In this document: positions 2,335 to 63,982 of the stretch, piece after piece
Numbering within the stretch: the first letter of the stretch is position 1
Layout of the letters: each line of letters opens with the position of its first letter
IMG/VR virus record: IMGVR_UViG_3300033156_000692
Origin: a virus
Direction: 5' to 3' (one strand)
Length of the DNA stretch: 64,000 nucleotides
Program-made: the position numbers and the translations under genes
Notes under the pieces: generated by a model
What the model saw: only the letters and a program-made list of their open reading frames with translations
Told to the model about the DNA's origin: nothing
The model's database searches: none

Positions 2335-3354
2335 TTAGTTCTCCTTTTTCTTGAGCCCGGCCCGAAGTCGGGCCACCACCTCTCCCATGCAGTTGTCCAT
2401 ATCCCAGCACCTGTTGCAGCGCCGGGGGCGGAACTTCTCCCCCTTGTAGGAGATCTCGCGCCCCACTGTGCCCTTTTGGGAGATGGTCTGTCGGTAGATC
2501 TCATCTTTGGGAATGGGGCAGTCATCGAAGACGGGTTCGATGACCTTGCCGCCGGCGAGGATGCGGGCTTTTCCTGGCGGGGCGTCTCGCTCCATCATGT
2601 CTTCCAGGTACGACAGCCGCAGGGACACGAACTCTTCGGGAGAGAGCTGCCCTAAGTTGGTGTCGAACTTGTAAGGGGCGCCGTTGAGGCATACTTGGCC
2701 ACTGCGCTCATCCAGAATGAACTTGGTGTAGTACGCGTTGTCCCGCCCCCATACGTGCAGCTCCCCGGGCATGTCCAGCACTTTACAGTACATATAAAGC
2801 TGAGCCACCCAGGAGCTCCACGGGCCGCCGTTCATGCGGATGTTGCTGGCGGACCTTCCCCGGGTCTCCTTTACCTCGATGATCACCGGGCGGTCATGCA
2901 TGAGGAGAACTATGTCTACCACCCCGTGGATAGGGCGCTTGATCCCCGGCCACTCAAAATGGAGAGGAAGCTCATGTATGGCGTTTCTGCCGATCTCCAT
3001 GAACTGTCCCTGCCAGATGCCCTCAGCCCGTTCCACGTGGTGTTTGAGGATGGGGTAGTGTTCCAGGGCTTTTTCTATGTCCATGGTGTTTCCGAGCACC
3101 TCGGGGTCGAGATTCGCAAGTCGTCCGTATTCGGCCTCCTCGGCCCCCTTACCCCATTCCATCATGATCACGGTAGCGAGCCCCGGTAGATTGGAGTACG
3201 GCTTCCCGTGGGCTCGGAACCAAATGGTCCGTGGGCAGGAGGCTACATGCCGCACGCTGAAGTGGTCGTTGACCTTACTCTCCCCGGTAAGTGCGGCTTG
3301 GGCCTCGGCCTCCATGATCTCGAAGACATCAACCCTACGCTCTAGCGCCAACAA
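2335..3354 (-). CDS. Cas4/RecB-like PD-(D/E)xK exonuclease with predicted 4Cys iron-sulfur cluster
   Basis: Motifs VVDIVLL...IIEVKET (D..ExK), QLYMY (QxxxY), N-terminal Cys plus C-terminal CNRCWDMDNC (Cx2Cx5C). Confidence 0.7.
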   Translation of the reverse strand: MLALERRVDVFEIMEAEAQAALTGESKVNDHFSVRHVASCPRTIWFRAHGKPYSNLPGLATVIMMEWGKGAEEAEYGRLANLDPEVLGNTMDIEKALEHYPILKHHVERAEGIWQGQFMEIGRNAIHELPLHFEWPGIKRPIHGVVDIVLLMHDRPVIIEVKETRGRSASNIRMNGGPWSSWVAQLYMYCKVLDMPGELHVWGRDNAYYTKFILDERSGQVCLNGAPYKFDTNLGQLSPEEFVSLRLSYLEDMMERDAPPGKARILAGGKVIEPVFDDCPIPKDEIYRQTISQKGTVGREISYKGEKFRPRRCNRCWDMDNCMGEVVARLRAGLKKKEN

Positions 3355-7801: not shown

Positions 7802-8107
7802 TCACTGGTTGCCGAAGTACCGCCGCCGCAGCTCCTCGCGTAGTTCGGCACAGGCGGCATTGAAGGCAGCATTATGGGAAAGCTCTTTGGTTTTGACGTG
7901 GGCCAGTTCGTGGGCCACAATATCCAGCACGTCGTCAATCTCCTTCGAATATGCCATATTTAGCACGATGTAAACGGTGTCTCGCTCGATTTCCACCACG
8001 CCCTTTAAGTGGGGAGGGACCGCGGTGGACAAGTACAACTCCACGCGCTTGTTCACCAGCTCCTCTGCGATTCTCCTAATCCTTAGCCATTTTACTTCTA
8101 CCATCAC
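7802..8107 (-). CDS. DUF45/WLM-like zinc metallopeptidase (HExxH)
   Basis: VAHELAHVKTKELSHNAAF matches the YgjP/DUF45 signature HELxH..(N/S)HSxxF. Confidence 0.5.
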   Translation of the reverse strand: MMVEVKWLRIRRIAEELVNKRVELYLSTAVPPHLKGVVEIERDTVYIVLNMAYSKEIDDVLDIVAHELAHVKTKELSHNAAFNAACAELREELRRRYFGNQ

Positions 8108-8143
8108 TACCTCCTTCGAACATCACGGTCCCCCGAACAAACT

Positions 8144-9802
8144 TCAAAACGGTGTCTCCGAAGTAAGCAGGGTTGAGGCATCGCCCAACCTTGCGATAAA
8201 CCACTCTCCCGGGTGATAAACTATGTTCTCCCCAGGAGAGGACTCCCAACTGGGGGAGGAATCCTCCGGCTCTTCGCTCATATATCGCACAATGGCTGTA
8301 ACTACGTTATCTACGTGCTCCCTCCAAGTGGGCTCGACCCGAGCCACCCGAGGCAGTCCAATGACTACGTGATTGGGTCTAGGGCGAACTGGATGTGGGG
8401 GCGATTCGAGCAGGTCAAAGCCCTCGATGGGAATGGAAGCGACCTCACCTCTGTCCTCAGCCAGTCCGTACAGCACTACGGTTATTCCGGCGGCTACTTC
8501 TCGGAAGGTTTCATCCCCCATCAGTCGCTGCTCATATTCCCGTCTTGCTGCAAAATCCCACTCATCCCTGAAGAAGAGTCTGGGGGCACTCAACACGGCC
8601 TCCCCCAGCCCCCAGGCGGCCCGGAGGGAAGGGATCTTTTCCTTCCTCCATCGCCGCCGGAACCGTAGGAAGTACTTCACCTCCTCTCTGGTGAGCCCCC
8701 CAATTTTGATATACTCCCGCGCATACGGCGGAGAATGGTAGACGATGGTTTCTCCCCTGGGGGCATTCAAGACCCGGGACACCAAGTTACGGGCCAACTT
8801 TAAGACGATTTCGGCCATCCGGGGCTCGGCAAATACAGCGGCGGGCGGAGACCGGTACTCGAACCCGTGGGGCTCAGTCCTTACGTCCGACAGGTCGCCG
8901 TATCCGCTCTCCGTTCGAGCGGGGCCGTTCAGTACCGACATGGGGCAACCGATAAATGTGTCCAACATTGAGACGAGTTGTCCCGGGGGGCGCCAGGGTC
9001 GTCCAACCCCAATGTGGATGTGGCCCCCAACGGGGTAGCGCTCCCCAAGGGGGGAGCCATCATAGGCGGCGTACCGCAGGGCGAACCGCTCGAAGATGGA
9101 ACGGATGCTCTCTACCACTCGCGCCGGATCGGTGGATGGGTCCGGCCGGACTTCCATTTGACTCCCGGCTCCGTCTACCCCCAGCGGGCCGAAGCTGCCC
9201 TCGGCCTCGTCTATTACCTCGTAGGCCGCAACCACACGGGGACCATCCCGGCCTATCTCTAGCAGCTCAAACTCGGGGTCACACCCCACAGTTACTTCTA
9301 CGGGAGTAAACTCCTCTGGCCCCGTTTCGGGTTCTAGCGGCTCCAATCCGACGCGCTCCAGTAGCTCGCGCACTAATGGGACGACTGTGTGGGGGACCTC
9401 GCTCCTGTTATGAGTCCAGTCCGTCAGCACAAAACTTTCCAGCTCAGGAAAATACAGTCCCGCGAAGCGCCCATTGACCCGGATGACCCACACCCGCCGG
9501 GGTGAGGGGGTATCTATAAAGGTAATGAGGTTGTCGAAAAACACCAGGTCTGCTATTGCGGCGGACAGATCTATGGTCCGCTCGGCTTGTGCCTGAACCG
9601 TCACGTTGGCGAACACGTAGAATGCCCTTGGTGGAATGTCCAACCCATCCAGGGGAGTTGTGTGGTTCCCCAGGTGCCGGAAGTAGCGCTCCAGGTCCAA
9701 TTCCCGGACCAGGATGGGGAACCCTTCAGTCCACTCCGATGGGGGGCTCTTTAAGGCTTCTGCCCCACCCAGTCCCCGGATAACCACTTCACTCCTCGGC
9801 AT
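8144..9802 (-). CDS. Amidoligase_2-like (glutamine-synthetase/GCS2-fold) protein with N-terminal extension
   Basis: Motifs VGCDPEFELLE (GxExE), GSQMEVRPDP, GGHIHIGVG; parallel to motifs in 10646..11842. Confidence 0.6.
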   Translation of the reverse strand: MPRSEVVIRGLGGAEALKSPPSEWTEGFPILVRELDLERYFRHLGNHTTPLDGLDIPPRAFYVFANVTVQAQAERTIDLSAAIADLVFFDNLITFIDTPSPRRVWVIRVNGRFAGLYFPELESFVLTDWTHNRSEVPHTVVPLVRELLERVGLEPLEPETGPEEFTPVEVTVGCDPEFELLEIGRDGPRVVAAYEVIDEAEGSFGPLGVDGAGSQMEVRPDPSTDPARVVESIRSIFERFALRYAAYDGSPLGERYPVGGHIHIGVGRPWRPPGQLVSMLDTFIGCPMSVLNGPARTESGYGDLSDVRTEPHGFEYRSPPAAVFAEPRMAEIVLKLARNLVSRVLNAPRGETIVYHSPPYAREYIKIGGLTREEVKYFLRFRRRWRKEKIPSLRAAWGLGEAVLSAPRLFFRDEWDFAARREYEQRLMGDETFREVAAGITVVLYGLAEDRGEVASIPIEGFDLLESPPHPVRPRPNHVVIGLPRVARVEPTWREHVDNVVTAIVRYMSEEPEDSSPSWESSPGENIVYHPGEWFIARLGDASTLLTSETPF

Positions 9803-10646
9803 ACTTCACCTCCTTTTCGCGGGGCGGGGGCAAGACGACGGGATCGTAAAATCCCAGGATCTCAGTGAGGTAACAGTCATCGCAGGCGTAGATCGCAGCG
9901 TCAGACCGGTACACTACGTCCTCACGGAATCGGCCGCAGATCTCGCAAATCCTCTCGCGACGCGCTGTGGTGTTAGCACTCTCCAGGGGTATGTACTCTT
10001 CGTCGTCATCGCGGTAGCTGTACGCGCCCCAAAACCTCTTGCGGCCGCGACGGGGCCAATCCCAGTCCCCGTAGTACTTGTAAAACTTGTAAGAGTGGTT
10101 GGAATACAAGATTCCGTTCTCCTCGATGGAACTCCCGATCCACAAAATGGAGCCGTCCGGCCACAGGAAGGCGAACTTGCCACCCACGTGGGAGATCAAC
10201 CGCTGGATGGAGTCTTTCCCCAGACTATCCCGAACCTCGGGCTGGGACAGGACCTCCATCACGAACTGGGCCGTGTCGGACCAACGCCCGGCATAGGCGT
10301 AGCCGCCTATGGTGCCGTTGTGACCGACCACGGGCAGCCGGGTCCGGAGCTTGGTAGCGCCGACCCAATCCTCCCGGTCGGTCAGCGGGAACGGATGGCA
10401 GTTAGCGCCGTCTCTGTGGCCGTGAGTGGCCAGCCGGAAGTGTATGATGGCTCCGTCCTCTTTTCGGACGGAGCTACGGAACTCATGGTAGAACCGGGCA
10501 AACGACGTGTAGCCCTTTTTGATCAGGATGTGCCGCCCTTTGGCCACGGCGAATCCGGCACCATCGGGGTTCCCCTCGAACCCGTTTAGTAGGTGCTCCT
10601 TTGGCGGGAGATTAACTCCCTTGGGTTTAGCGATAAGTAGGCACAC
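9789..10646 (-). CDS. YafJ-type class-II (Ntn) glutamine amidotransferase with C-terminal zinc ribbon
   Basis: GTG start immediately followed by a Cys codon (N-terminal Cys nucleophile); DGAGFAV, IIHFRLATHG, CHPFP, VVGHNGTIGGY align to the YafJ family; C-terminal CEICGRF...CDDC. The start overlaps the upstream stop (TAGTG) with AAGGAGGTG RBS. Confidence 0.65.
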   Translation of the reverse strand: MCLLIAKPKGVNLPPKEHLLNGFEGNPDGAGFAVAKGRHILIKKGYTSFARFYHEFRSSVRKEDGAIIHFRLATHGHRDGANCHPFPLTDREDWVGATKLRTRLPVVGHNGTIGGYAYAGRWSDTAQFVMEVLSQPEVRDSLGKDSIQRLISHVGGKFAFLWPDGSILWIGSSIEENGILYSNHSYKFYKYYGDWDWPRRGRKRFWGAYSYRDDDEEYIPLESANTTARRERICEICGRFREDVVYRSDAAIYACDDCYLTEILGFYDPVVLPPPREKEVKYAEE

Positions 10647-11842
10647 TAAACTACCACCTCCTTTTTTCTTTCCCAGTACGGCACCCAAATGCCCAAGATT
10701 TTCATGTACTGGACTAGGTGCCCGTACCGGTTTGTTTGCTCTAGCCACCCGCAAAACACGTCCCACTGCATTGCCAGCGCCGAGAACATCCGGGCAAAGT
10801 GGGCAACGGCATCAGCAAACTGTAGGAACGCGATGAACTCTTGGGGGTCGGTTGTGGACCGGAACACCCGGAGTTCCACGGTCCCCTCGGACGTTGCCGT
10901 ATTTACGGCTAGGTATCTATTGCTGGGCGCATAATGCCAGTTTTTTGCTATGTCGTGGGGCGCATACGGGAGCAGCTTGGCCCACTGCGAGTTCCAGCGG
11001 CCTGCGATCTTGCATATCTCATCCCAGCACCTAGTAAAGAACACGGCCAGCCGGTCCACCCCTCGCCTTCCTAGAAACTGGCGGGATAGGTGAATATGTA
11101 TCCCACACGTGCTTGCCGAGTACCCTCCGGCTTCCTGGACGGCTTCAACAACCAGGGCCGGGGAGTATCGGTGCCAGCGTTTCCAGGTGGTGGGGTGAAA
11201 CACGATCTCAAACCCGTTCTGCAACGACCCATCATATTTGAAGTAAACCCGCTCATTGTTTGTGAGTTCATTCGGCAAATAGTCTAGCAATGCTTCGGCC
11301 ACGCCCTCGGGGTCGTCGTTGCACTCCACCTCCAGCTCAACGCCGAGGTAGAGCGTGTTCTCATACGGTTCCTTTGCGAAGACTGGGCACGGTTTGTAGC
11401 CGTAGTCCTCAATCGGCCCAGGCGGCGGGGCGCAGCCCTCACAATACGGTCCCTCACCCCCACGGGTGTAAACGGCATCCTCGCTCCAGATGGTCGCCCC
11501 GCACGCTATACATGTCGTGCAGTATTCGTACCAACATCCTTCACAATACTCCTCACCATCAGGAGTCATAAGGGCACTATCCCGATGTACCACCTCCCCA
11601 CAGGACGCACACTCAACGTAGTTTTCGTACCAGCAGTCCTCACATATAAGCTCCCCATTGGGGGCCTCCACGAGGCTATCCCGATCCACAATACGACCGC
11701 ACCGGGGACATCGAGCAAACAACTCCCAATAGCACTCGGCGCAGTAATTCTTGTGGTCTGACGCCTCGAACGCCCACCCCGCCCACATAAGCTGGCCACA
11801 CCTCGCGCAGGCCACGGTGGGCGGCGCCACCGTTTCGGACAT
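10646..11842 (-). CDS. Amidoligase_2 family protein with N-terminal triple zinc-ribbon (CxxC pairs)
   Basis: LGVELEVE and GIHIHLS motifs characteristic of the putative amidoligase family; N-terminus holds 6 CxxC pairs; GGGGAGGTG RBS. Confidence 0.7.
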   Translation of the reverse strand: MSETVAPPTVACARCGQLMWAGWAFEASDHKNYCAECYWELFARCPRCGRIVDRDSLVEAPNGELICEDCWYENYVECASCGEVVHRDSALMTPDGEEYCEGCWYEYCTTCIACGATIWSEDAVYTRGGEGPYCEGCAPPPGPIEDYGYKPCPVFAKEPYENTLYLGVELEVECNDDPEGVAEALLDYLPNELTNNERVYFKYDGSLQNGFEIVFHPTTWKRWHRYSPALVVEAVQEAGGYSASTCGIHIHLSRQFLGRRGVDRLAVFFTRCWDEICKIAGRWNSQWAKLLPYAPHDIAKNWHYAPSNRYLAVNTATSEGTVELRVFRSTTDPQEFIAFLQFADAVAHFARMFSALAMQWDVFCGWLEQTNRYGHLVQYMKILGIWVPYWERKKEVVV

Positions 11843-11862
11843 TTAAACCACCTCCCCTTAAT

Positions 11863-11887
11863 AAAAAATCCGCCCCAAACGGGGCGG
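11863..11887 (-). terminator. intrinsic terminator (CCGCCCC-AAAC-GGGGCGG then TTTTTT on minus strand)
   Basis: Perfect 7-bp GC stem with 4-nt loop (11870..11887) followed by a 6-nt T-run on the minus strand (plus-strand A-run 11863..11868), just 3' of the tRNA-like element and 20 nt 5' of the amidoligase RBS. Confidence 0.55.
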
Positions 11888-11889
11888 TC

Positions 11890-12008
11890 TGGTGCCCGGG
11901 GCCGGATTTGAACCGGCTCCCCCGGTCTCCCAGGGGCGGACTTTTCCCTGGGGCGGGGACCACAACCTGCCGCCTCGGTGGGGCGTGTTCCCACCACGCC
12001 GCCCGGGC
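11890..12008 (-). ncRNA. tRNA-like element, 119 nt: canonical acceptor stem, D-arm, T-arm (GGTTCAAATCC) and encoded CCA, but about 43 extra nt in the anticodon/variable region
   Basis: Minus-strand sequence: GCCCGGG..GCGT-GGTGGGAAC-ACGC......GCCGG-TTCAAAT-CCGGC-CCCGGGC-A-CCA. No canonical anticodon arm can be folded by hand. Confidence 0.35.
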
Positions 12009-12096
12009 AAAAGACGCCTACGTCTGTGGGGCTCTAGCCACGGCCACGGGATGTTTCACCCGTAACCGTGGGGGCCATTGGGGGCCATTTTTAAAC

Positions 12097-12633
12097 CTAC
12101 CTCGGGGCAGCCTTTTGCCATAGAAGATGGGTTAATTCCCACACAACATATTCTTGGGCATGTTCCCATCCATAAAAGAACCGGTCCACGCCAACATTTG
12201 GGAGCACCGACACCCCAATGAGAGTGCCCCACTCGGGCCACTCCCTCTTCCATGTGCATACATAGAAAACGGGACCACCATACATGCGCGGTGATAACAG
12301 TATTTCATCGTATTCTAGTGGAGTTTTGTAAACATCACGGAACATGTCCGCCCAAGGCGGCGGACTATTGTCGACCCAATTGTAATGGATTATGTGAGCG
12401 AACCCTATTTTAAGATCTTTCGCCAACTCCTCCAGCCGATATATAATCCCCCCTGACTTCTTCACTTCGATAACCTTTGTGGAATCCAATTTTTCGATAT
12501 CGCACAACCCCAGTTTAGCTACCCTCAGCGCAAACGAGCAATTAGAACGCAATGCCGGGGGAAACTCCACCCACAGGTCCCTTCCTCCGGCCGCGTCTTC
12601 ACGCACAAGTATCAACTTCGCTTCGGTCTTCAT
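12097..12633 (-). CDS. hypothetical protein in a lower-GC segment
   Basis: ORF; local GC visibly lower than the surroundings. Confidence 0.45.
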   Translation of the reverse strand: MKTEAKLILVREDAAGGRDLWVEFPPALRSNCSFALRVAKLGLCDIEKLDSTKVIEVKKSGGIIYRLEELAKDLKIGFAHIIHYNWVDNSPPPWADMFRDVYKTPLEYDEILLSPRMYGGPVFYVCTWKREWPEWGTLIGVSVLPNVGVDRFFYGWEHAQEYVVWELTHLLWQKAAPR

Positions 12634-12666
12634 TCACGTCACCCCTTTGCCCAGGAAAGTCATGTC

Positions 12667-13020
12667 CTAAGACGCGGCCCGGGCCACAGGGCGGGCCGCT
12701 AGGATTAGCTGGATCGTGGGTTGCCTTGGCCCGGAACGTTCGATAGTGGCAAGAACCATACCTACGCCATCGCGCTCATAATAACTGCCGGTTACTTTGT
12801 CTCCCGAGGTGCACGCAGCAGCTAGCCCGCGCAGCACTGCGGGGGAAACCTTTTCGCGATACCACGAGGGCAGGTTTTCAATGGTTAAAATCGGTTCTAT
12901 GGCTTTGGTTTTACCCCAAACACCACCATCAAGGATTTTGACAAGTTGCAGGGCGTTCCCTTCAATGCGTGCTTCATCGGCACTAGTTACCATCGCACTA
13001 ACGCGCCGTTCCCACAACAT
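12667..13020 (-). CDS. hypothetical protein
   Basis: ATG with GGGAGGTG RBS (the ORF track starts at GTG 13029). Confidence 0.4.
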   Translation of the reverse strand: MLWERRVSAMVTSADEARIEGNALQLVKILDGGVWGKTKAIEPILTIENLPSWYREKVSPAVLRGLAAACTSGDKVTGSYYERDGVGMVLATIERSGPRQPTIQLILAARPVARAAS

Positions 13021-13047
13021 TTGGACCACCTCCCTACGGGTTTTAAC

Positions 13048-13194
13048 CTAAATAAACCCCATCCGTAGAAGCGGGTTCACCCACCCGCACTCTGGGCACT
13101 CTGGACAGTCTGGCTCCAACAATGAGCCGCACTCTGGACACTCAATCACATCCCCCAATGCCGCTTGCTCCAGGAGCTCTTCGAGCTCTTCCAT
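13048..13194 (-). CDS. small zinc-ribbon protein (48 aa, three CPEC motifs)
   Basis: MEELEELLEQAALGDVIECPECGSLLEPDCPECPECGWVNPLLRMGFI; GAGAGGAGG RBS; below the ORF-track length cutoff. Confidence 0.3.
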   Translation of the reverse strand: MEELEELLEQAALGDVIECPECGSLLEPDCPECPECGWVNPLLRMGFI

Positions 13195-13305
13195 CACGAC
13201 CTCCTCTCTTTTCTCCTCTCCTCTTCTTCTTTCTCCTCTATCTCCCTTAGTAGTTGCCGCATTTTTCTCAACTCCTCTTCAAGATTTATTGCCATAAAAT
13301 CACCC

Positions 13306-13563
13306 CTACACTAAAACCGCTTGCGTCAACGGTTCTTGCGTTACCAGCACCGCCTCTTGGCCGCCACGTGTCTTAATCTCCTCTGCAACCCGGCGGATCA
13401 AGTCCGCATCCTCCTCGATGACTTCCACAATGAGCGAACGTTCAACTTGCCCCTTCCAGATACCTTGCGCCGCAACCAACGTAGCCCCAGTCAACAACTT
13501 GGCCACGACATCCCTAATAGGAGGGAGATCCTCAGTGTAAATCCTCCACCGAATGCCCCTCAT
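13306..13563 (-). CDS. hypothetical protein
   Basis: ORF, 85 aa. Confidence 0.4.
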   Translation of the reverse strand: MRGIRWRIYTEDLPPIRDVVAKLLTGATLVAAQGIWKGQVERSLIVEVIEEDADLIRRVAEEIKTRGGQEAVLVTQEPLTQAVLV

Positions 13564-15566: not shown

Positions 15567-16532
15567 CTACCTTCCGGGCTCCAAAACGCCCTGCGGAAGC
15601 ATTAGCTGCGGCATCAGCCCCGAATCATAGGGCACAATGAGGAATGTGGTGTTGGGGCTGCCGACCAGCTCGCGTACCGCCTCGATGAACTTCCACTGCA
15701 AATACTCCTCGGTCAGCGTTTCCTGGATGATCCGCTGGGCAGCCGCAATACCCTCAGCCTCCACGCGCCGCTTCTCGGCCTCCATCCTGGCCCGCTCCAC
15801 CTCGTACTGGGCACGCTGGATGGCCTCCTGGGCAGCTACTTTCTGCTCGATGGCCGCTTGTACCGTCTCCGGCAAAATCACGTTCCGCAGCAGCACTGCC
15901 TCGCAAATGAGGCCGTTTTGCTCGAAGTCCTCCTTGATTTCTTCAAAGATGGCTTGCTGGACCTCGGGCCGCTTGACCCCATAGATCTCGGCCGCTGTAT
16001 ATCTGGATGCCACGTTCCGGATCGCCGTCCTCGCTTTGGGGCGAACGATCACCCGCTTGTACGCCTCCCCGGTGCCGATCTCCCGGTACACCCACGCGGC
16101 CTTGGTCTCATTAAGCCGGTAACGCACCGTGATGTCCATGGTGATCTTGAGCCCGTCTGACGACAGCGCGTCGATGGCGTCATTGCCCTGGACTTCACCT
16201 TCCTGCGGGGCAACGGACATGGTGTACTCCTGCTTGCGGACGGACATCTGAACCACCGTCACCCACGGGGCCTTAAGGTGAAGCCCCGAATCATAGGTGT
16301 AGTCCAGCACCCGACCGAATACAACCGGCACACCTACATGGCCAGTTTCGATCTTGACCGTGAGACTGAATATGAGGCAAACCACGGCCCCAATCGTCAG
16401 CCCCCACCCGATGATCCTGGCCATACCCCCAGCCTCTTGTTCGCCCTCCTTAAACCATTGCCTCCCTAGCCCCAACAAGATAAAGCCGAACAGCAACAAT
16501 ATGACTCCAAGTACGAAAAGACCCATCTGCAC
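15567..16532 (-). CDS. SPFH/band-7 (prohibitin/stomatin/HflK-like) membrane protein
   Basis: N-terminal TM helix, SPFH core (VVFGRVLDYTYDSGLHLKAPWVTVVQMSVRKQEYT...), C-terminal coiled coil. Confidence 0.8.
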   Translation of the reverse strand: MQMGLFVLGVILLLFGFILLGLGRQWFKEGEQEAGGMARIIGWGLTIGAVVCLIFSLTVKIETGHVGVPVVFGRVLDYTYDSGLHLKAPWVTVVQMSVRKQEYTMSVAPQEGEVQGNDAIDALSSDGLKITMDITVRYRLNETKAAWVYREIGTGEAYKRVIVRPKARTAIRNVASRYTAAEIYGVKRPEVQQAIFEEIKEDFEQNGLICEAVLLRNVILPETVQAAIEQKVAAQEAIQRAQYEVERARMEAEKRRVEAEGIAAAQRIIQETLTEEYLQWKFIEAVRELVGSPNTTFLIVPYDSGLMPQLMLPQGVLEPGR

Positions 16533-17587: not shown

Positions 17588-18190
17588 TCATACCTCCTCC
17601 CGGATGTGTACGTCGTTTACCGCCGCCACCCCCAACCGGAACCTGAGTCCAGCTACTAGTGTCGCCCAGTCCTCATACACCAGCTCCGGCCTTTTGAGTT
17701 GCGGCACCAGCTCCACGATAAACTCCCACCACTCGGGCAACCGATGGTCCCTGCGCTGGCGCACCATTCGTTGAAGCGCAAGATAGTTGGTACACACTAT
17801 CCGTCGTTGCCGGAACGATTCCGGAAGCAGTTCCTTCACCCGCCGCCAATCCTCGGCCTCAATGAGGCGGTTGAGCTCATCTAACCACCCCTTCGGGATC
17901 GGATGCTCGAAGTCCTCCTGGGTGAGCGGCCTCTTCGTGATGGTGTGCATCGTGGATTCCGATTGTTTGCTAACACCTACCCGGTAGGTGTCAAATTGCT
18001 GCCACCAGTAGCGCGGCCCCACGATGTCAAGCCAAACCACCATCTGCTCCAGGTACTTGTTATGCCCATCCCCTTTGTGCGCTAGCCTCATCGCCACCGA
18101 GTCCATCCGATCGGGGTCCTGGCGGAACGATAGCGACAGCCCCAGCATCGCCCACTTGTATCCGGCCTCTTCAAGCACCCTTACTTGCAT
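17588..18190 (-). CDS. thyX: ThyX-like (Thy1 family, flavin-dependent thymidylate synthase-like) protein with atypical signature motif
   Basis: H.KYLEQ...DIVGPRYWWQQFDTYRVGVSKQSESTMH resembles the ThyX core, but the canonical RHR is TYR here; only 200 aa. Confidence 0.55.
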   Translation of the reverse strand: MQVRVLEEAGYKWAMLGLSLSFRQDPDRMDSVAMRLAHKGDGHNKYLEQMVVWLDIVGPRYWWQQFDTYRVGVSKQSESTMHTITKRPLTQEDFEHPIPKGWLDELNRLIEAEDWRRVKELLPESFRQRRIVCTNYLALQRMVRQRRDHRLPEWWEFIVELVPQLKRPELVYEDWATLVAGLRFRLGVAAVNDVHIREEV

Positions 18191-62866: not shown

Positions 62867-62938
62867 TACGCCCGGGAGGATTCGAACCCCCAGCGTGGGG
62901 TTAGAAGCCCCACATGTTCTCCATTACACCACGGGCGC
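62867..62938 (-). tRNA. tRNA-Arg (anticodon UCU); CCA not encoded
   Basis: Hand-folded cloverleaf: acceptor GCGCCCG/CGGGCGU, anticodon loop CUUCUAA, T-loop TTCGAAT. Confidence 0.7.
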
Positions 62939-63016
62939 TGGCGGGGACGACGGGATTCGAACCCGTGGCCTTCGGCTCGACAAGCCGACGTGCACTCCAG
63001 GCTGCACCACGCCCCC
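62939..63016 (-). tRNA. tRNA-Asp (GUC); CCA encoded
   Basis: Anticodon stem TCGGC/GCCGA, loop TTGTCGA, T-arm ACGGG-TTCGAAT-CCCGT. Confidence 0.75.
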
Positions 63017-63019
63017 GTG

Positions 63020-63097
63020 TGGAGAGAGGGGTGGGATTTGAACCCACGAATACCCGGGTTGCAACCGGGTGCCTTAAACCTGCTTGGCTACCCCCTC
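63020..63097 (-). tRNA. tRNA-Cys (GCA); CCA encoded; discriminator U
   Basis: Anticodon stem CCCGG/CCGGG, loop TTGCAAC, T-loop TTCAAAT. Confidence 0.7.
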
Positions 63098-63174
63098 TGG
63101 TGGGCTGTGGAGGACTCGAACCCCCAACCCTCGGCTCCGAAGGCCGATGTTCTGGTCCATTGAGCTAACAGCCC
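63098..63174 (-). tRNA. tRNA-Arg (UCG); CCA encoded
   Basis: Anticodon stem TCGGC/GCCGA, loop CTTCGGA; 3' end abuts the previous tRNA 5' end with zero spacer. Confidence 0.65.
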
Positions 63175-63176
63175 TC

Positions 63177-63251
63177 TGTCCCCGGGCGGATTTGAACCGC
63201 CGATCTCCGGGTTGAAAGCCCGACGGGTTGACCTGACTACCCCACGGGGAC
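63177..63251 (-). tRNA. tRNA-Glu (UUC); CCA not encoded
   Basis: D-stem GGGT/ACCC, anticodon loop CTTTCAA, T-arm GGCGG-TTCAAAT-CCGCC. Confidence 0.7.
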
Positions 63252-63327
63252 TGGTGGGCCGCGCAGGGCTCGAACCTGCGGCCTCCTGGTTAAAAGCCAG
63301 GAGCTCTGCCGACTGAGCTAGCGGCCC
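63252..63327 (-). tRNA. tRNA-Lys (UUU); CCA encoded
   Basis: GGGCCGC-TA-GCTC-AGTCGGC-AGAGC..CCTGG-CTTTTAA-CCAGG.. Confidence 0.75.
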
Positions 63328-63390
63328 TTGACAATTCATCAAGATAAGGCTAACGCCATTAGCCTTATCTCGTATTGGTGTCAAGTTCTT
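63328..63390. other. nested inverted repeats in the tRNA-array spacer (AGATAAGGCTA-N7-TAGCCTTATCT inside CTTGACA...TGTCAAG)
   Basis: 11-bp perfect inner stem and 7-bp outer stem seen directly. Confidence 0.6.
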
Positions 63391-63467
63391 GGCGGGCCGG
63401 GAGGGAATCGAACCCCCACACACCGGATTTGGAGTCCGGCGCTCTAGCCAATTGGAGCTACCGACCC
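63390..63467 (-). tRNA. tRNA-Trp (CCA); CCA encoded
   Basis: Anticodon stem CCGGA/TCCGG, loop CTCCAAA. Confidence 0.7.
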
Positions 63468-63543
63468 TGGTGGGTTGCGAGGGAATCGAACCCCCAGCCT
63501 GCCGGTTAAGAGCCGGCTGCTCTGCCAATTGAGCTAGCAACCC
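63468..63543 (-). tRNA. tRNA-Lys (CUU); CCA encoded
   Basis: Anticodon stem GCCGG/CCGGC, loop CTCTTAA; abuts tRNA-Trp. Confidence 0.7.
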
Positions 63544-63619
63544 TGGCGCGAGCTGCGGGATTCGAACCCGCAACCTGTGCCCTGGCAAGGCACTGTGCTA
63601 CCGATTGCACCAAGCCCGC
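63544..63619 (-). tRNA. tRNA-Gly (GCC); CCA encoded
   Basis: Anticodon stem GTGCC/GGCAC, loop TTGCCAG. Confidence 0.7.
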
Positions 63620-63694
63620 TGGTCGGGGAGGGCGGGATCGAACCGCCGACCTCGTGCTCCCAAGGCACGCACGCTTCCGCTGCGCTACTCCCCG
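63620..63694 (-). tRNA. tRNA-Pro (UGG); CCA encoded; C1-G72
   Basis: Anticodon stem CGTGC/GCACG, loop CTTGGGA; C1:G72 pair typical of bacterial tRNA-Pro. Confidence 0.75.
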
Positions 63695-63750
63695 TGTGTC
63701 CTTCTGCGGGGGTCAATTTTGGCCATAAATGTCCTCCACAGAAGGATAAT

Positions 63751-63827
63751 TGGTGGTCCCGGGGGGATTTGAACCCACCGCCATCAGGTTGAGAACCTGA
63801 CATCCTAGTCCGCTAGACGACGGGACC
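63751..63827 (-). tRNA. tRNA-Glu (CUC); CCA encoded
   Basis: Glu-type D-arm TCGTCTAGCGGACTAGGA, anticodon stem TCAGG/CCTGA, loop TTCTCAA. Confidence 0.65.
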
Positions 63828-63903
63828 TGGCTGCGGGGGTGGGACTCGAACCCACGACCGCCCGGTTAACAGCCGGATGCTCTCCCTGCTGAGCTACCCC
63901 GCA
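63828..63903 (-). tRNA. tRNA-Asn (GUU); CCA encoded
   Basis: Anticodon stem TCCGG/CCGGG, loop CTGTTAA. Confidence 0.7.
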
Positions 63904-63907
63904 ATCC

Positions 63908-63982
63908 TGGAGCGACCGGCGGGAGTCGAACCCGCGTTGCTGGCTTGGAAGGCCAGGGTCTTACCACTTAGACGACGGTCGC
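63908..63982 (-). tRNA. tRNA-Gly (UCC); CCA encoded; discriminator U
   Basis: Anticodon stem CTGGC/GCCAG, loop CTTCCAA. Confidence 0.7.

Follow-up and report, generated by a model that had tools for sequence, protein, structure and literature searches.

A phage-borne cassette built on a ligase and Ntn hydrolase pair, with a candidate role in gamma-glutamyl amide chemistry

The 64,000-nucleotide stretch of viral DNA analysed here (hereafter the window; IMG/VR record IMGVR_UViG_3300033156_000692) carries on its minus strand a cassette of four genes, which code for an Amidoligase_2 protein (AL2), a class-II glutamine amidotransferase-type hydrolase (GAT) of the N-terminal nucleophile (Ntn) class, a phiEco32-like COOH-NH2 ligase (CNL) and a zincin-like protein (ZnP). 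Comparison with related loci reveals that the conserved unit consists of two genes, a ligase directly upstream of the Ntn hydrolase, which travel without any pathway partner; second ligases, the zincin and ATP-grasp proteins are accessories. On a modest balance of probability, this module would both form and trim gamma-glutamyl amides, on a substrate of the cytoplasm that bears an amine. Documented in what follows are the folds, the sets of catalytic residues, the coupling of the genes and the near-obligate linkage between ligase and GAT.

Protein families and predicted active sites

The four consecutive minus-strand open reading frames (ORFs) reported in a first-pass annotation of the window were recovered at the same positions, both in the ORF list and in the raw sequence. 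Together with the terminator that precedes them, they are:

10646-11842, minus strand: AL2, 398 amino acids (aa); four N-terminal Cys4 zinc ribbons (residues about 12-137) and a catalytic domain (about 150-398)
9789-10646, minus strand: GAT, 285 aa counted from GTG then TGC; catalytic domain (1-190), disordered linker and C-terminal Cys4 zinc ribbon (234-258; C234/237, C255/258)
8144-9802, minus strand: CNL, 552 aa; N-terminal beta-rich domain (about 1-150, with a conserved DWTH), ligase core (about 170-345) and C-terminal alpha/beta domain (about 350-510)
7802-8107, minus strand: ZnP, 101 aa; from the preferred ATG at 8104, 7802-8104 and about 100 aa
11870-11887, minus strand: intrinsic terminator hairpin (CCGCCCC-GTTT-GGGGCGG followed by a T-run), seen both in a terminator scan and in the sequence

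The genes had also been described as translationally coupled, which holds for the first two junctions: the AL2 stop TAG and the GAT start GTG have one base in common (TAGTG, position 10646), and the GAT and CNL reading frames share 14 nt (CNL ATG at 9802, GAT TGA at 9789), the starts of both GAT and CNL being preceded by AAGGAGG. The CNL/ZnP junction, by contrast, is close-packed but not strictly coupled, with a gap of about 36 nt and a GGAGG of its own before ZnP. Judged by the spacing of the ribosome-binding site and by the N-termini of homologues, the likely start of ZnP is ATG 8104, which fits better than GTG 8107. At the other end, the terminator, a strong one, immediately precedes the ribosome-binding site of AL2, comes after a tRNA-like element and not after a cassette gene, and constitutes the upstream boundary of the cassette. 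The motifs that had been quoted for AL2 (LGVELEVE, GIHIHLS), CNL (GCDPEFE, GSQMEVRPDP, GGHIHIGVG) and ZnP (HELAH...SHN..F) are all present.

AL2 matches the Pfam family Amidoligase_2 (PF12224) with 26.3 bits for a cut-off of 22, as well as phrog_16683 at 1.5e-28, and its homologues also bear precomputed PF12224 matches. In 23 homologues, residues G167, E169, E171, D204, S206, E212, H249, H251, R282, E323 and R325 are invariant, and these sequences follow the pattern of glutamine synthetases (GS) and gamma-glutamylcysteine synthetases (GCS), namely a GxExE strand, a Glu, HxH, an Arg and ExR. AL2 is assigned to Amidoligase_2 and predicted to be a GS/GCS-like carboxylate-amine ligase. Its N-terminal part is matched by the Pfam LIM and DZR families. 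Instead of the triple ribbon with six CxxC pairs first described there, eight pairs are found (12/15, 34/37, 45/48, 67/70, 78/81, 100/103, 111/114 and 134/137), forming four Cys4 ribbons whose cysteines are invariant (11) or nearly so (5, at least 90%) in the same 23 homologues.

For GAT, the claimed GTG start followed by a Cys codon (GTG-TGC) was confirmed, and 83 of the 84 homologues found begin with Met-Cys. An alignment of 46 sequences shows C2 to be nearly invariant, and N26, G29, G31, H69, R71, T74, G76, H84, P85, H109, N110, G111 and D124 to be invariant. Among these, R71, T74, N110, G111 and D124 presumably correspond to Arg73, Thr76, Asn98, Gly99 and Asp123 of GlmS, and C2 to its Cys1. 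In GlmS, these residues act as the nucleophile, form the oxyanion hole and bind glutamine by its alpha-carboxylate and alpha-amine. GAT would thereby possess a complete predicted Cys1 Ntn amidohydrolase site, which should hold a free glutamyl moiety. The AlphaFold2 model reaches a predicted local distance difference test score of about 97 over residues 1-190 and, when compared with the PDB by Foldseek, matches the glutaminase domain of GlmS/GFAT (E about 1e-6), EgtC (3e-4) and PurF, with a probability of 1.00. Pfam scores stay below the cut-offs (GATase_4, 12.5 bits for a cut-off of 23; GATase_6, 14.3 for 27), NCBIfam returns only a glmS N-terminal fragment (E 1e-4), and PF13230 is borne by about a third of the homologues. 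The family assignment relies on the homologue alignment and on the predicted structure, which both point to a divergent stand-alone class-II Ntn GAT of the alpha-beta-beta-alpha fold; the earlier call of a class-II amidotransferase stands in this form, but the more specific one of a YafJ-type enzyme is not established. The C-terminal Cys4 ribbon is of the same type as those of AL2.

CNL was first seen, like AL2, as an Amidoligase_2-like protein, which is correct for AL2 only, since CNL falls in the sister family PF14395 (COOH-NH2_lig; 73 bits for a cut-off of 25, over residues 172-342). This family is matched in all 34 CNL homologues examined, and homologues of CNL, like those of AL2, keep the acidic, His and Arg motifs without variation. 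By fold, CNL matches YbdK, gamma-glutamylcysteine ligase (GCL), GshAB, PafA/Dop, GS, GmaS and 1-naphthylamine GS, with structural scores for YbdK and GCL above that for PafA, and among viral proteins the COOH.NH2 ligases of phages CW02 and RIO-1 resemble it most closely in structure. CNL is a phiEco32-like COOH-NH2 ligase of type 2, with the carboxylate-amine ligase fold of YbdK, GCL, PafA and GS. Its relatives came from IMG/VR and from a metagenome protein search, as tblastn against 50,697 deposited phage genomes gave none. Taken together, AL2 and CNL display two complete predicted carboxylate-amine ligase active sites.

Finally, ZnP is a minimal zincin-like protein with an HELAH-x7-H motif. 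Five homologues of about 31% identity all retain its residues H66, E67, H70, H78 and F82, so that the HExxH and the third ligand of the proposed DUF45/WLM Zn-peptidase are retained, but the family profiles themselves score below their cut-offs (SprT-like, 19.3 bits for 25.6; WLM, 18.1 for 26; YgjP-like/DUF45, 16.6 for 26; E 0.001-0.008) and NCBIfam gives no match. ZnP was found only in the window and in four related loci (L001, L002, L010 and L011), always adjoining a long CNL and a GAT.

The ligase and hydrolase pair in phages and bacteria

The linkage between ligase and GAT was assessed in three samples. Eighty IMG/VR loci were picked by GAT motifs alone, out of 154 confirmed matches of a narrow motif search. 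AL2 or CNL occurs within 3 kb in 73 of the 79 loci with a detectable GAT (about 73 of 75 assessable loci), the ligase being almost always encoded in the same direction as GAT and directly upstream of it; of the six exceptions, four are at contig ends, where fewer than 850 nt precede GAT. Reciprocally, in 73 loci picked by AL2 motifs, of which about 70 could be assessed, GAT is directly downstream in 63. In the same line, bacterial contigs sampled at one genome per species contain 39 GAT loci and show the pairing in 37 of them, the pairs being distributed over Bacteroidota, Bacillota, Actinomycetota, Planctomycetota, Lentisphaerota and Pseudomonadota. The main exception to this rule is a group of six IMG/VR contigs of 89-145 kb (L160-L165), whose divergent AL2 homologues (21-25% identity) have no adjoining GAT.

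Beyond this pair, little is kept. The four cassette genes are the only ones common to the window and the first dozen related loci, and no conserved third gene emerges: no other cluster is present in more than 14 of about 95 loci, where recurrent neighbours, e.g. HTH and portal genes, reflect lineage-specific synteny. The order of the window, AL2-GAT-CNL, is found in five further loci (L034-36, L038 and L057) and in the nearest relatives, at 47-59% identity, and the four loci with a zincin have the order CNL-CNL-GAT-ZnP. Many loci are minimal pairs without zinc ribbons (AL2 of about 290 aa, GAT of about 170-190 aa). With significant ligase profile matches, a conserved Cys after the start codon and a block retained in related phages, the cassette proposed by the first-pass annotation holds as such.

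In two cases, the phage C75C1 (OQ984151; L015, 4001-4897; PF06094, 76.8 bits) and locus L158, the GAT domain is fused to a GGACT/AIG2 gamma-glutamylamine cyclotransferase, both fusions being encoded downstream of Amidoligase_2 genes. The C75C1 fusion protein is annotated merely as 'gamma-glutamyl cyclotransferase'. As for the locus type with a zincin, in L010 (12722-13147, 13153-13887) a small protein after the zincin has a weak transglutaminase-like match (22 bits, below the cut-off), and a RimK/R2K-type ATP-grasp (25 bits for a cut-off of 21) is encoded on the opposite strand.

The cassette had been presented as the most distinctive candidate for an undescribed system. However, it is a variant of an already described phage type (phiEco32, LUZ24, RIO-1, CW02 and Marvin), because the same three core families are annotated and discussed in LUZ24-like phages, phiEco32, RIO-1, CW02, Marvin, and OM43 and Poseidoniales viruses, and trace back to Iyer et al. 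2009 (PMC3268129), which is cited as proposing peptide tagging. Hardies 2013 (PMC3754069) is the source cited for the RIO-1-type cassette. Duhaime et al. 2017 described a seven-gene 'peptidoglycan modification cassette' with two amidoligases, one of them gamma-glutamyl, together with a GATase, an ATP-grasp and a gamma-glutamyl cyclotransferase; with reference to Hardies 2013 and Iyer, they reported its conservation in RIO-1, phiEco32, 7-11, PA11, tf, MR299-2, LUZ24, PaP3 and CW02. The amidoligase-GATase pair is also reported from OM43 phages, a Poseidoniales virus and Marvin, its function being called unexplored by the authors.

LUZ24-like phages combine COOH-NH2_lig, Amidoligase_2 and GATase proteins with an ATP-grasp. 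In the LUZ24 (Bruynoghevirus) record, these are gp16 (COOH.NH2 ligase), gp18 (amidoligase), gp19 (glutamine amidotransferase) and gp21 (RimK ATP-grasp), followed by gp22 (gamma-glutamyl cyclotransferase), and they adjoin primase and helicase genes. The profiles of the window proteins match their counterparts (CNL-gp16, 3e-12; AL2-gp18, 1e-4; GAT-gp19, 1e-8), gp19 being only distantly related to GAT. The likeness covers the three core families, an amidoligase directly upstream of GAT, and a location in an early/replication arm by a helicase. The differences concern the order (CNL-x-AL2-GAT-x-ATPgrasp-GGCT in LUZ24 versus AL2-GAT-CNL-ZnP in the window), the ATP-grasp and cyclotransferase, which the window lacks, the zincin, which it has in addition, the size of CNL (266 aa in LUZ24 versus 552 aa with two extra domains in the window), the zinc ribbons on AL2 and GAT of the window, and an identity too low for BLAST. 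RIO-1, PSA-HP1, CW02 and phiEco32 likewise share with the window the PF14395 core of CNL, and have amidoligases and a GATase in the cassette; theirs, whose function is itself only hypothesised, is a seven-gene podovirus cassette with ATP-grasp and cyclotransferase, versus four genes in a myovirus-type phage here.

Neither Pfam nor PHROGs gives an ATP-grasp or GGACT/AIG2 match in the scanned window ORFs between 565 and 27913, and nothing in the window corresponds to the ATP-grasp cluster of related CNL loci. The window copy is a reduced or altered variant, without ATP-grasp and cyclotransferase, with a zincin added, a long multi-domain CNL, and ribbons on AL2 and GAT.

Among cultured phages, the nearest relatives by tblastn are gp105-gp106 of Marvin and the pairs of the OM43 phages MEP401/402 (AL2, 27-30% identity; GAT, 34-35%), which are encoded by adjoining genes on the same strand and in the same order as in the window. 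They differ from it as two-gene versions without CNL and ZnP, located at the genome end (Marvin) or start (MEP) and not in a replication arm. Both proteins of the pair are thus present in phages of Mycobacterium and of OM43 Methylophilales; Clostridioides phages give a match for the ligase only, and Bifidobacterium and Xanthomonas phages for GAT only. The whole cassette finds nothing by blastn in distant mode against the same 50,697 genomes, and PADLOC defence models give no match for AL2, GAT or CNL, and one for ZnP only at E 0.0078, to a candidate model.

Candidate chemistries

In the favoured scheme, AL2 and CNL would work as ATP-dependent carboxylate-amine ligases of the GS/GCL/PafA fold. 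Each would most likely phosphorylate a glutamate-type gamma carboxylate and join it to an amine, yielding a gamma-glutamyl-type amide, because the structural relatives of the ligase core act on the gamma-carboxyl of glutamate: YbdK, GCL, GshAB, PafA/Dop, GS, GmaS and 1-naphthylamine GS all activate or act on this group. With its N-terminal Cys as nucleophile, the co-translated GAT would hydrolyse the gamma-amide in a glutamyl moiety with free alpha-amino and alpha-carboxyl groups, i.e. gamma-Glu-X or glutamine, and the zincin would probably cleave a normal peptide bond, either in this product or in a precursor. Glutamate as the activated acid, the order of the steps and the substrate are what we infer; the substrate is more probably a peptide or small molecule shared by widely differing hosts than a phage-specific DNA base. 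The scheme has known parallels in EgtA/EgtC, PuuA/PuuD and IpuC/IpuF, in which a GS/GCL-fold ligase forms a gamma-glutamyl amide from which a Cys amidohydrolase later removes the glutamate. EgtC is among the structural matches of GAT, and GCL, GS and GmaS among those of CNL. The relation is one of folds only and, unlike these enzymes, the window genes belong to a mobile phage module without further pathway genes.

Several points weigh against this scheme. The best structural match of GAT is an ammonia-delivering glutaminase, GlmS, ahead of EgtC, and tight one-to-one translational coupling is equally expected of a glutaminase/synthetase pair. Besides, a gamma-Glu-X ligase beside a hydrolase that destroys its product looks futile without an intervening step, and the two-gene versions encode none. 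Searches of PDB sequences with both ligase profiles returned LIM domains or nothing, the matches of the AL2 profile being of LIM type and confined to the ribbons, and no solved relative of PF12224 or PF14395 was obtained. The zincin assignment of ZnP, as a profile match, is sub-threshold. In addition, the searchable literature yielded no biochemical study of the two ligase families or of the GAT family, in agreement with what the first-pass annotation had stated.

The first two of these points would be accommodated by the main rival, glutamine-dependent amidation, in which GAT would channel NH3 to AL2 and/or CNL to convert an activated R-COOH into R-CONH2, as in the analogous MurT/GatD and Gat-QueC. 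In its favour are the one-to-one adjacency of ligase and GAT with overlapping stop and start codons, the invariance in GAT of the full GlmS-type set of glutamine-binding residues, the rank of the GlmS/GFAT glutaminase domains above EgtC among the fold matches, and the ribbons of the same type on AL2 and GAT, which could hold a complex together; many minimal AL2/GAT pairs, nevertheless, have no ribbon at all. The known class-II enzymes that channel ammonia have the GAT fused N-terminally to the synthase, and EgtC, a characterised stand-alone member, is a gamma-glutamyl hydrolase. The GGACT fusions and co-occurring cyclotransferases would make no sense for an ammonia donor. From these fusions and from the separate cyclotransferase of the LUZ24 and RIO-1 cassettes, it would therefore follow that GAT cleaves a gamma-glutamyl amide rather than only donating ammonia, which leaves amidation as a tentative alternative, possible but not probable.

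Less likely is a modification of peptidoglycan precursors for superinfection exclusion, where the ligases would add unusual amide or isopeptide links to stem peptides, and GAT and the peptidase would remodel them, with a change of the cell surface as a result. This is the interpretation given in the literature to the cassette of RIO-1, phiEco32 and LUZ24. Since the four proteins have no obvious signal sequences, the action would be on cytoplasmic precursors. However, the core occurs in elements of hosts whose stem peptides differ widely (Mycobacterium, Bifidobacterium, Clostridioides, Bacteroidales, Pseudomonas and OM43), and the cassette is reported in a virus assigned to Poseidoniales archaea. 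These archaea are not known to have murein. A self-contained module, very different host envelopes and the reported archaeal virus argue against a general peptidoglycan target and for a ubiquitous cytoplasmic substrate.

Such a substrate might also be a universal macromolecule. The ligase-GAT pair could then write and erase a gamma-glutamyl or amide mark, placed either on exocyclic amines in DNA or RNA or on a lysine of a conserved host protein. The ribbons would be the targeting modules, and phages and other mobile elements would use the pair to mask nucleic acid or disable a host factor. This proposal, which we regard as rather unlikely, draws on the self-contained two-gene core, its spread over six phyla and the ability of GS-fold enzymes to gamma-glutamylate aromatic amines.

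A related and still more doubtful proposal is a tagging system resembling pupylation, in which a PafA-like ligase would put glutamate or a peptide on lysines of host or phage proteins, and GAT and the zincin would serve as deamidase, eraser or tag-processing peptidase. Peptide tagging is what Iyer et al. 2009 are cited as having proposed; LIM-like zinc ribbons are classically protein-interaction modules, and the zincin could process a tag. No Pup-like small ORF ending in GGQ or GGE was detected in or beside the cassette, however. The amidase of the window is an Ntn Cys hydrolase and not a Dop paralogue, the small-molecule ligases YbdK and GCL outscore PafA as structural matches of CNL, and the counterpart of GlmS Asp123 in GAT argues for a free alpha-amine and not for a residue inside a protein.

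Finally, the role in DNA or nucleotide modification suggested by the first-pass annotation finds so little in its favour that it is, by our estimate, the most improbable of these explanations. A base or a nucleotide precursor would receive glutamate or an amide from the ligases, and GAT would supply nitrogen or trim the adduct. It is true that Lee et al. 2021 report amidoligase and amidotransferase Pfam matches in some metagenomic thymidine-hypermodification clusters, that ATP-dependent amide ligation on a carboxyl handle of DNA exists in one characterised DNA amide ligase, CmoY, though by a fold that differs from that of the cassette ligases, that the cassette lies in a replication/nucleotide arm, as in LUZ24 by the primase, and that tandem zinc ribbons could bind nucleic acid. 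Nevertheless, no hydroxymethylase, 5-HMUDK, aGPT-Pplase, TET/JBP or CmoA/CmoX was detected in the arm, no base-activating gene travels with the module in the about 95 related loci, which have nothing but cassette genes in common with the window, and GAT is predicted to bind a free alpha-amino-acid moiety. The reported proximity to ThyX, Dcd and NrdD is real as regards the presence of Dcd and NrdD, but these genes and a weakly ThyX-like one are 6-12 kb away, with many unrelated ORFs and a terminator in between, and ThyX itself is unsupported.

Genomic setting and significance of the module

The window belongs to a tailed, myovirus-type phage, with genes for terminase, portal, prohead protease, capsid, tail sheath, tape measure and baseplate J on the plus strand, and for DnaB, an SPFH protein, Dcd and NrdD in the minus-strand arm. 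The ThyX-like ORF (17588-18190, minus strand), located 6 kb from the cassette, scores 19 bits against Pfam Thy1 for a cut-off of 24.8, matches phrog_6721 (unknown function) at 1e-32, and has YRVGVSKQSES instead of an RHR motif; it may not be a thymidylate synthase. The SPFH/Band 7 membrane protein (15567-16532, minus strand; PF01145, 119 bits) is encoded directly upstream of the dCTP deaminase-like gene. Close to DnaB, a 339-aa ORF (2335-3354, minus strand) matches phrog_1706, 'CRISPR/Cas system associated', at 2e-8, and has no Pfam match. A compact array of 13 tRNA genes (62867-63982, minus strand; Arg x2, Asp, Cys, Glu x2, Lys x2, Trp, Gly x2, Pro and Asn) occupies the end of the window.

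Next to the cassette lies a further feature:

11890-12008, minus strand: tRNA-like element, 119 nt

Its 7-bp acceptor stem pairs perfectly (GCCCGGG/CCCGGGC) and its 3' end is ACCA; it also has a hairpin resembling a D-arm, a long additional hairpin and a T-arm (GCCGG-UUCAAAU-CCGGC), and the intrinsic terminator comes next. Neither ARAGORN with default settings nor the Rfam gathering thresholds call it; with introns allowed, ARAGORN proposes tRNA-Gly(ccc) with a 24-nt insert, and the Rfam matches, to SpF41 and tRNA-Sec-like models, are all sub-threshold. Its membership of the cassette was rejected, as it is absent from the nearest relative, in which an 85-aa ORF abuts AL2, and from all other loci. 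In that relative (L173), the ORF directly upstream of AL2 is a homologue (53% identity) of the 85-aa ORF at 13306-13563 of the window, an arrangement which suggests that window positions 11843-13305, with ORFs 12097-12633 and 12667-13029 and the tRNA-like element, represent an insertion, or else were lost from the relative. A faint match (E 0.0076) links the 85-aa ORF to S-AdoMet lyase.

The copy carried by the window is one more variant, ordinary for phages, and it is the class itself that merits biochemical study: the amidoligase-GAT pair ranks among the more widespread enzyme modules of phages and mobile elements without a tested function. Together, the two-gene unit, the predicted site for a free glutamyl moiety and the GGACT fusions narrow the chemistry to gamma-glutamyl amides. 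The identity of the substrate, if found, would explain an 'auxiliary metabolic gene' annotation that recurs in many phage genomes.

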